From Dictyostelium discoideum (Eukaryota), in NCBI GenBank assembly GCA_000004695.1, contig CM000154.2:1056001-1120000 (forward strand): a stretch of 64,000 bases of DNA, given 5' to 3'. Below are positions 25,097 through 26,226 of this stretch, piece by piece (position 1 is the stretch's first letter; each line of letters starts with the position of its first letter). A program made the translations under genes and the position numbers. A model generated the notes under the pieces. It was not told the DNA's origin. It saw nothing but the letters and a program-made list of their open reading frames with translations, and searched no databases.

Positions 25097-26226
25097 ATGA
25101 AAGATAAAAAAAATAATACAGATACAAATAAATTAGAAATTGGTGATAATTATAACAACAATAATAATAAAGATAAAAATGGTTTAGAAATTAAAAGTGG
25201 TGATATTAAAAATAATAATAAAAATAATAATAATAGTTTAGTTGAATTAAAATTACCATTAGATATTTCATTGGCAAAGTTTAATTATAATATTATTTTA
25301 GGAGTTAAAGCAATTTATGTTAATAAAAATACGATTAAAGTATCACACTCAAAATATTTCAACATTAGTAAGTTGTTACCATTTTTTGGTTATAATATTA
25401 ATCATATTAAAGAAATTTTAAATCCAAATAAACATTTAGTGATTGAAACATACAAAGAATTGTTATATATTATTTATGAAACGTCAGTATCTGATTCTAT
25501 CAATAGTGCATATATATTTCGTGCTTTATTGAATCATGTTTGTGATAATAATATGAGAAGAGTTGGTTTTAATCATACAATGATTGATTTTGATGGTGGT
25601 GTAATTAGAAGACCAGATTTCTATTTTGTTTCAATGAAGTACTTCTAATCAAATTCCTCCTACGTAATCATCCATTTTATGCACCTCTTATGCCAGAGTT
25701 TGTTGCAGAATATAGATCACCAAATGAAAATTCAGTATCATTCAGAGACAAAATGATTGAATATATTCAAAATGGTATAGAATCATGTTTATTGATAGAT
25801 GATATTGATGAAGTTTTCATTCACTTTTGTGCAACACCCAACCCTGGAAATCCACCATTGATTCCTAATTCAACTCCAATTTTAGGTTTATATCATCAAC
25901 CAATCGGTGTAAACTCCATCTCCTATCATTGGAATAACTTTCAAATGAACCAAGGTTTCTTCCCACAAGTTATAATTCCATTACCTGGTATAATAATAAT
26001 AATAATAATAACAATAATAATAATAATAATAATAATAATAATAATAATAATAATAATAATAATAATAATAATAATAATAATAATAATAATAATAATAATA
26101 ATAATAATAATAATAATAATAATAATAAATATAATCATAATAATAATAATAAATATAATCATAATAATAATAATTATAATAATAATAATAATAAAAAAAA
26201 TAAAAAAAATTATAAACAATAAATAA
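25097..26226 (+). CDS. Uma2-family (DUF820, PD-(D/E)xK restriction-endonuclease-like) protein gene. One frame shift near 25640-25660 splits it into track ORFs 25019..25648 and 25690..26226, and the 3' end runs into an (ATA)n repeat.
   Basis: The N-terminal part ..YIIYETSVSDSINSAYIFRALLNHV..RRVGFNHTMIDFDGGVIRRPDFYFVS and the C-terminal part ..MPEFVAEYRSPNENSVSFRDKMIEYIQNGIESCLLIDDIDEVF.. match the two conserved Uma2 blocks (..G.....rPDv.vvs.. and ..PdlvvEvlSPs....D...K...Y...Gv.eYWliD..). The 24 residues between them change frame with no intron signals. Confidence 0.45.
25985..26215. repeat. (ATA)n/(AAT)n trinucleotide repeat at the 3' end of the Uma2-like locus
   Basis: Seen directly. Track ORFs 25941..26219 and 25981..26235 (poly-I, poly-Y) are artefacts. 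Confidence 0.9.

Follow-up and report, generated by a model that had tools for sequence, protein, structure and literature searches.

A frame-disrupted Uma2-family gene in Dictyostelium discoideum AX4 and its amoebozoan relatives

Proteins of the bacterial Uma2 family (PF05685, COG4636; also named DUF820 or TT1808) are described in the literature as putative or predicted endonucleases, and we found no demonstrated Uma2 activity there. A 2012 survey of PD-(D/E)XK families entered Uma2/DUF820 as bacterial (PMC3424549). When bacterial members are aligned, E50, E138 and K152 are invariant and D108 is also a conserved column. Here we describe a locus of this family in a eukaryote. It occupies positions 25097-26226 of a 64-kb window (the whole stretch of DNA that was analyzed) from Dictyostelium discoideum AX4, where an initial annotation had proposed a Uma2/DUF820 homolog with its two conserved blocks in different frames. 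This locus is very probably a unitary pseudogene confined to the AX4 (NC4) lineage, and its parent would be an intronless Uma2-family gene, which we call type A. Our search of the literature found no papers on DDB_G0288083, the gene annotated at this locus, or on DDB_G0270468, the AX4 copy of a second paralog (type B).

A Uma2-family gene divided between two reading frames

Assignment of a protein to PF05685 requires 27 bits, the gathering score. Neither open reading frame (ORF) at the locus reaches this value as it stands in AX4: the second scores 21.4 bits and the first has no match. Conceptual repair of the AX4 gene raised the score to 33.7 bits, and a score of 34.5 bits (E = 1.8e-8) was reached when the repair, which joins 25097-25648 to 25660-25989, was guided by intact alleles (G25639 removed, 5 nucleotides (nt) restored). 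Either way the match extends across the frame break; with the guided repair it spans residues 138-240 of the translation. Failure of exactly this comparison had been named in the initial annotation as a result that would overturn the family assignment, which therefore stands.

Similar results were obtained with an intact ortholog from D. citrinum (P0001, 328 amino acids (aa)). It scored 39.8 bits on PF05685, and phmmer matched it to the founding Uma2 structure, 1WDJ, at E = 1.9e-5 among PDB sequences. An AlphaFold (AF2) model of P0001 had a predicted local distance difference test score (pLDDT) of 80 and a predicted template modelling score (pTM) of 0.73. The top seven matches when this model was compared to the PDB with Foldseek were all Uma2/DUF820 structures, and the alignments to 1WDJ, 6OKH, 9Y1L and 3OT2 had E values of 6e-12 to 1e-7 and target template modelling (TM) scores of 0.70-0.81. 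The fold result is that of the intact ortholog.

In an alignment of 47 sequences, E220 (of the E-x-R-S motif) and K234 are invariant and D188 (of the PD motif) is nearly so. The AX4 codons for the motif are all present and are split over two frames. Judged on its sequence, the AX4 locus is derived from a gene of the Uma2 (PF05685, PD-(D/E)XK fold) family.

The 5′ ORF (25097-25648, + strand; frame 25097+3k) is 100% identical to DDB_G0288083 (P0003; XP_636896.1, Q54JF4; 183 aa). It encodes a low-complexity N-terminus, an N-terminal extension and the first half of the Uma2 fold, and it ends in a premature TAA, reading ...GGVIRRPDFYFVSMKYF* at its 3′ end. The extension (SLVELKLPLDISLAKFN...LLPFFGY; 25235-25399, + strand) lies upstream of the Uma2 core and is amoebozoan-specific in our alignments, where it is kept in the dictyostelids and Soliformovum and not in the bacterial proteins of ~200 aa. 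It forms a small alpha/beta unit in the AF2 model of the ortholog (block-mean pLDDT about 73-91). The N-terminal half of the nuclease fold follows in the original frame (25400-25638, + strand) and includes the glutamate of VIETYK (codon 25445-25447) and the PD aspartate of RRPD (codon 25616-25618).

The C-terminal half of the fold is in the shifted frame (25660-25989, + strand) and carries the E-x-R-S glutamate (codon 25708-25710), the lysine of RDKMIEY (codon 25750-25752) and LLIDD, together with an amoebozoan-specific insertion of ~45 aa (CATPNPGNPPLIPNS...). Residues 205-313 of P0001 match window 25663-25989 with 76% identity by tblastn. The second ORF (25690-26226; frame 25690+3k) is open from 25642 and has an ATG at 25690. 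It starts MPEFVAEYRSPNE..RDKMIEYIQNGIESCLLID, includes ...LRNHPFYAPLMPEFVAEYRSPNENSVSFRDKMIEYIQNGIESCLLIDD... and then enters an (ATA)75 microsatellite (25990-26215, + strand; 75.3 copies and 226 nt by Tandem Repeats Finder), which is read as poly-isoleucine until the TAA at 26224-26226. The initial annotation had noted this run into (ATA)n, and it had also placed the locus, both motif blocks and their separate frames correctly. No second Uma2 copy was found in the 64-kb window.

We propose that the ancestral product was a protein of ~320 aa made up of the low-complexity N-terminus, the amoebozoan N-terminal module of ~55 aa, and a Uma2 core with the conserved Glu, Asp (RRPD), Glu (AEYRS) and Lys (RDKM), with the ~45-aa insertion placed before the last strands. 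By homology, its putative role would be that of a metal-dependent phosphodiesterase acting on nucleic acid. The intact proteins of the family are likewise putative metal-dependent nucleases, judged on fold and motif.

Lesions in AX4 and alleles in its relatives

To call lesions, we aligned the AX4 nucleotides with those of D. citrinum, D. cf. discoideum and two further D. discoideum isolates (GCA_054859385.1 and GCA_054859355.1). Four changes in this alignment are private to AX4. The first disabling lesion is a G inserted at 25639 (+ strand; GAAGTAC in AX4, GAA-TAC in all of the others), which shifts the frame by +1 and brings in the premature TAA at 25646-25648, 7 nt after the insertion. The second is a 5-nt deletion, 20 nt downstream of the inserted G, with its junction at 25659|25660 (+ strand; ATTCCTCCTAAACTACG in GCA_054859385.1 as compared to ATTCCTC-----CTACG in AX4). 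Together these amount to a net change of -4 nt (+1, -5), and therefore conserved coding resumes in the frame of 25690. The frame break is thus compound and not a single frameshift.

The third change is an in-frame deletion of 18 nt (junction 25281|25282, + strand; its position is ambiguous by a few bases), at a site where AAATTCATTAAATATAA-type sequence is retained in both of the other D. discoideum isolates, D. cf. discoideum and D. citrinum. The fourth is a 3′ deletion of about 57 nt in which the final ~17 codons (VLNNYPLNLGNSQRYQ) were lost together with the stop codon, so that ...IPLPG is fused to an AT-rich triplet repeat. Intact alleles end ...PLPGVLNNYPLNLGNSQRYQ* and an AAT/ATA repeat comes after; on this alignment, the (ATA)n run of AX4 is the former 3′ flank, joined to the ORF by deletion. 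The AX4 locus lacks a single uninterrupted frame with the native C-terminus.

By sequence comparison, then, the AX4 copy was disabled by the +1 insertion, which creates a stop after 7 nt, by the 5-nt deletion downstream of it, and by loss of the final strand and stop, with fusion of the ORF to the 226-nt ATA repeat. The 183-aa product cannot be a nuclease because its share of the active site is limited to the half with Glu and Asp. The AX4 copy would yield no functional product: half of the site is in this fragment, and the second half is without the last strand and has a poly-isoleucine tail.

Beyond AX4, synteny at the locus is kept in four more assemblies from the D. discoideum complex. One of them, GCA_054859385.1 (labelled D. 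discoideum), has an intact single-exon allele of 323 codons (P0077) at the syntenic locus, with the DUF4286 gene and the ~218-aa gene of the AX4 window on either side. Lesions at the ancestral locus and an intact syntenic ortholog in a relative are together what defines a unitary pseudogene, and both are seen here.

The other relatives gave different outcomes. In GCA_054859355.1 there is a +1 change inside the N-terminal AAT tract only (L009 ~6110-6150) and the frame is otherwise open. D. cf. discoideum has a different lesion, a 2-nt deletion just upstream of the Uma2 core (L002 ~9960-9975). These frame breaks outside AX4 are either recurrent real losses or long-read errors. In both strains of D. 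citrinum the gene is intact, and the copies encode 328 and 329 aa.

The D. citrinum type A gene (L001 9820-11147 of JBTAPK010000026.1, which includes ~180 nt of upstream flank) adjoins a gene for a polyketide synthase of 2,520 aa, and its flanks have no match anywhere in the 64-kb AX4 window. Its synonymous divergence (dS) from AX4 is 0.40, as compared to 0.27-0.33 for orthologous genes between the two species. Since these values are close, we read the D. citrinum copy as an ortholog, either one that has moved or a differentially retained duplicate.

We estimated the ratio of non-synonymous to synonymous divergence (dN/dS) by the method of Nei and Gojobori (NG86), comparing AX4 to D. cf. discoideum unless stated otherwise. 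This gene had a dN/dS of 0.45 with a dN of 0.071. Five of the six neighboring genes had dN/dS of 0.08-0.23 and dN of 0.006-0.04, while the sixth, a low-complexity gene, had a dN/dS of 0.40. Type A comparisons with the intact D. citrinum copy gave 0.39-0.46, so that the gene family evolves fast even when intact. Outside the repeat, AX4 has 17 private codon changes (6 synonymous and 11 non-synonymous); the two further isolates of the species have 9 and 6. These rates are consistent with recent loss in a weakly constrained gene, not with long neutral decay.

Several points weigh against the pseudogene reading. The 183-aa fragment may be made and may do something. The dN/dS of 0.45 is below 1 (22 synonymous versus 41 non-synonymous differences, as plain counts). 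There is little signature of long neutral decay, and therefore the pseudogene call rests on the lesions. The second assembly that bears these lesions, which is described below, may come from the same laboratory strain; it excludes a one-off assembly error and is silent on how widely the allele is spread. Moreover, the comparison isolates are not close relatives of the laboratory strain: over window 18000-33000, GCA_054859385.1 and GCA_054859355.1 each show about 3-4% mismatches to AX4 as well as many indels in repeat length. Mismatches at this level exceed what published estimates of diversity lead one to expect within D. discoideum. Finally, the nuclease activity that would have been lost is predicted from fold and motif.

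One possibility is that the locus is functional in AX4, either through a 183-aa product with a nuclease-independent role or through two halves, made by frameshifting or by re-initiation at the ATG at 25690, that assemble. It could be argued in its favor that dN/dS is lower in the N-terminal extension (0.27) than in the Uma2 part (0.50), that in D. cf. discoideum, whose break is an independent one, the ORF of the extension has likewise stayed open (a 119-aa model), and that the ATG at 25690 arises from an AX4-specific Ile-to-Met change. However, the counts in the extension are tiny (4.5 synonymous and 5.5 non-synonymous), and the second ORF lies 40 nt past the stop, a position from which eukaryotic ribosomes do not normally translate. 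The C-terminal strand has been deleted and roughly 75 Ile codons stand in its place, and the intact alleles are single ORFs. We consider a functional AX4 locus improbable.

A second possibility is that the frameshift is an artefact of sequencing or assembly and that AX4 really has an intact type A gene. The break does lie in AT-rich sequence near short homopolymers, and frameshifts that may be of the error type occur in the long-read assemblies of relatives, for example the +1 in the AAT tract of GCA_054859355.1. A homopolymer slip would not look like a compound lesion of +1 and -5, 20 nt apart, however, and the break is accompanied by the 18-nt deletion and the ~57-nt 3′ deletion. In addition, an independent chromosome-level assembly, GCA_054883475.1, repeats window 22677-29000 with 0 mismatches and has the same 183-aa ORF. 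An artefact is thus very improbable, and where the initial annotation had left open whether the copy was decaying or carried an assembly error, the several independent AX4-specific lesions, the agreement of this second assembly and the intact allele in another isolate decide for decay.

Lastly, we give next to no weight to the possibility that the two blocks are exons split by an unrecognized intron: although in formal terms the frames can be joined by 61 GT..AG pairs with no stop between, so that the "no intron signal" of the initial annotation holds in substance but not to the letter, we enumerated all 61 and none is credible, as every pair that keeps RRPD removes sequence that is exonic in the intact alleles. 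The candidate at 25628-25698 (71 nt), for example, aligns base for base with uninterrupted coding sequence of those alleles and its splicing would remove 23 conserved residues; the donor of this best candidate is GTTTCA, unlike the GTAAGT that is usual in Dictyostelium, and the segment lacks the AT-richness of the family's real introns.

The gene models of GCA_054883475.1 include ACTFIT_000420 (P0069, 103 aa, ...IPLPVPNI*; L003 3001-3753, equivalent to window 25690 to ~26440), in which the ATA array and ~220 nt beyond it are treated as an intron. This intron is probably an artefact of ab initio prediction that masks the pseudogene.

The surroundings of the locus are those of ordinary eukaryotic genes, a DUF4286 gene with two exons upstream and a GCFC-domain gene downstream. 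The upstream neighbor (23984-24499, + strand) belongs to a family of unknown function (PF14114). We looked for tRNA genes as integration landmarks and found none in the 64-kb window. A pure poly(T) run of 49 nt lies upstream of the gene at 24697-24745, and a 56-bp tandem repeat of 2.5 copies lies downstream at 26445-26582. Between the ATA array and the next gene there is a short, relatively GC-rich ORF (MSNKFNEYTKLHNVFPEGPGHEPIVFEGGQFPQIKKNIKNK; 26278-26403, - strand). It has no Pfam match, and the stretch was unmatched in D. cf. discoideum by megablast.

The amoebozoan Uma2 subfamily

The second Dictyostelium paralog, type B, is represented by P0006 in D. citrinum, P0071 and P0072 in D. discoideum, and DDB_G0270468 (P0079, Q55ED5) in AX4, and it also occurs in D. 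cf. discoideum. Its loci lie outside the window (L007 8001-9171 and L006 10001-11470). Type B is intact and is syntenic between D. discoideum and D. citrinum, where it is found beside a proteasome-subunit gene; its gene models diverge strongly at the 5′ end (336, 365 and 398 aa). Alone it has no Pfam match, and a profile search of the PDB with the type B alignment found no Uma2 structure. When a type B profile was compared to a bacterial Uma2 profile with hhalign, the probability was 99.2% (E = 7e-20) and PD, E-x-R-S and K were in register.

Like type A, DDB_G0270468 is composed of the extension, the Uma2 core and the insertion, and the two are 27.5% identical over 305 aa by BLASTP (E = 9e-26). 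Unlike the AX4 type A copy, it is intact, has a phase-2 intron before KPD, is not recognized by Pfam and has a lower dN/dS (0.29).

More distant homologs were found in D. purpureum (XP_003288055), Physarum polycephalum (transcript 11990, P0037) and Soliformovum irregulare (P0009, in which an IQ motif is also present), and there is one metagenome protein (P0017). The ~45-aa insertion (CATP..G..PLIP..) precedes the last strands in all of these homologs, and most have the N-terminal module. The deposited D. purpureum protein (217 aa) matches only weakly and skips about 60 codons of the Uma2 core, including the PD/PE segment. When the gene was re-spliced at a canonical intron it encoded a protein of 279 aa (LLPNGYERKPEISF) that scored 50.6 bits on PF05685. 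In this gene (GL871060.1; L005 10001-10917) the intron reads ...TATGAAAG|GTAATTG...TTTTAG|AAAACCAGAA and the PD motif is PE.

The D. purpureum gene and type B have in common a canonical phase-2 intron (GTAA...TAG) that interrupts the Arg codon just ahead of KPD/KPE; type A lacks it. Intronless type A could be an old retrocopy. The intron lies at L005 ~10398-10475 in D. purpureum and at L006 ~10616-10985 in D. citrinum type B, where it is filled with a long AAT repeat. We compared the D. citrinum type A, D. purpureum, type B and AX4 window regions by tblastx and found no synteny among them.

We carried out an exhaustive hidden Markov model search of 1.84 billion cluster representatives. Five proteins fell below 1e-10, all of them from Dictyostelium or a EukProt entry, and bacterial Uma2 proteins formed a tail at 1e-7 to 1e-3. 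None of the bacterial Uma2 proteins among these representatives was more than 50% identical to the Dictyostelium proteins. A profile search of a set of 5.8 billion proteins with a seven-sequence alignment returned only close relatives among the matches listed, and low-complexity words dominated the candidates. A protein that scored 2e-8 by profile, P0007 (ENA metagenome, 614 aa), was rejected as spurious: it has ten copies of a SQHPFYVPLLLCF repeat that mimic the HPFYVPL segment. A giant-virus or phage origin was also considered, and Foldseek against BFVD returned nothing at E <= 0.001.

We then built a neighbor-joining tree from 195 core columns, sampling the 43 best-scoring bacterial-like sequences. 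The 10 amoebozoan-like sequences were split from these with 91% bootstrap in an unrooted tree whose distances are saturated. Of the origins that the initial annotation had offered, we favor an old, under-annotated eukaryotic lineage, that is, an amoebozoan Uma2 subfamily that spans Dictyostelium, Physarum and Soliformovum. The family appears to be older than the divergence of Dictyostelia, Myxogastria and one or more protosteloid lineages, and the most likely course is that it was acquired once from bacteria by an early evosean amoeba. It tells against this last proposal that both the bacterial origin and the single acquisition depend on a crude neighbor-joining tree with saturated distances.

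In contrast, it is scarcely credible that the gene came from bacteria by a recent horizontal transfer or is a bacterial contaminant of the assembly. In support of such an origin one could cite the bacterial listing of Uma2/DUF820 in the PD-(D/E)XK survey (PMC3424549), the absence of the gene from the 16 published candidates for horizontal gene transfer in Dictyostelium (PMC3188802), and the lack of introns in the type A copy. On the other hand, the composition is host-like, with an N-rich low-complexity N-terminus, synteny with the eukaryotic neighbors is kept in five assemblies, and the best bacterial matches reach only E values of 1e-7 to 1e-3. The amoebozoan sequences form one group in the unrooted tree, with Physarum and Soliformovum included, and a spliceosomal intron is common to D. 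purpureum and type B. The initial annotation had argued against contamination, and this is borne out by the position between DUF4286 and GCFC-domain genes, the synteny in the four further assemblies and the intron in relatives.

Comparison with known systems

It could be speculated that the amoebozoan Uma2 nucleases are conflict genes, used for defense against foreign DNA in bacterivorous amoebae or forming a selfish or addictive element. We raise this because the genes evolve fast (dN/dS 0.4-0.5) and the location differs between D. citrinum and D. discoideum, because independent frame breaks occur in three D. discoideum-complex lineages with an intact allele in a fourth, and because bacterial relatives match the candidate phage-defense system PDC-S03. 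We regard the idea as doubtful. The PADLOC models of PDC-S03 (PDLC04832 and PDLC04833) match a bacterial Uma2 protein (P0012) and the Soliformovum homolog at ~1e-8 and D. citrinum type A at 4e-4. However, the match is to the shared Uma2 domain only, type B is unmatched, and no partner genes or defense context were seen in the amoebae.

These data call for changes to three annotations. DDB_G0288083, listed as an "uncharacterized protein" in Q54JF4, is the 5′ half of a Uma2 gene that is very probably dead and whose 3′ half has no annotation in the AX4 reference. The homology of DDB_G0270468 to Uma2 has gone unrecognized, and D. purpureum XP_003288055 is mis-spliced. Should the intact proteins prove to have nuclease activity, the standard laboratory strain would offer a natural knockout, the AX4 null allele, for comparison with isolates carrying an intact gene.

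As compared to the bacterial Uma2 proteins of known structure, the amoebozoan proteins share the fold (with the TM scores given above, on the target), and the positions of the motif (a Glu in the region of the first strand, PD, E-x-R/K-S and, further downstream, the Lys of K-M-x-E-Y/W), and the repaired AX4 translation, P0001 and the re-spliced D. purpureum protein score over the Pfam threshold. Unlike its bacterial counterparts, the gene lies on a eukaryotic chromosome, and its copy in AX4 has been inactivated. The amoebozoan proteins are also longer (270-400 aa, about 190 in bacteria), with an N-rich leader, the ~55-aa N-terminal module and the ~45-aa CATP..G..PLIP.. insertion, and their identity to bacterial members is only 20-25%. 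The locus leaves the understanding of PD-(D/E)XK enzymes unchanged and is not a new kind of system.

Eichinger 2005 is also reportedly a source of candidate bacteria-to-Dictyostelium transfers. Like the 16 published candidates (Sucgang 2011, PMC3188802 Table 2), Uma2 is a bacterial-type Pfam family that is absent from animals, plants and fungi and present in both D. discoideum and D. purpureum, and it occurs in Physarum as well, as ThyA does. Unlike them, it is not on the list, one of its two AX4 copies is very probably a pseudogene, and among the sampled sequences the amoebozoan members form a clade of their own and are not nested in a bacterial clade. The family thus adds a bacterial-type nuclease, putative in its activity, to the prokaryote-derived genes of the slime moulds.

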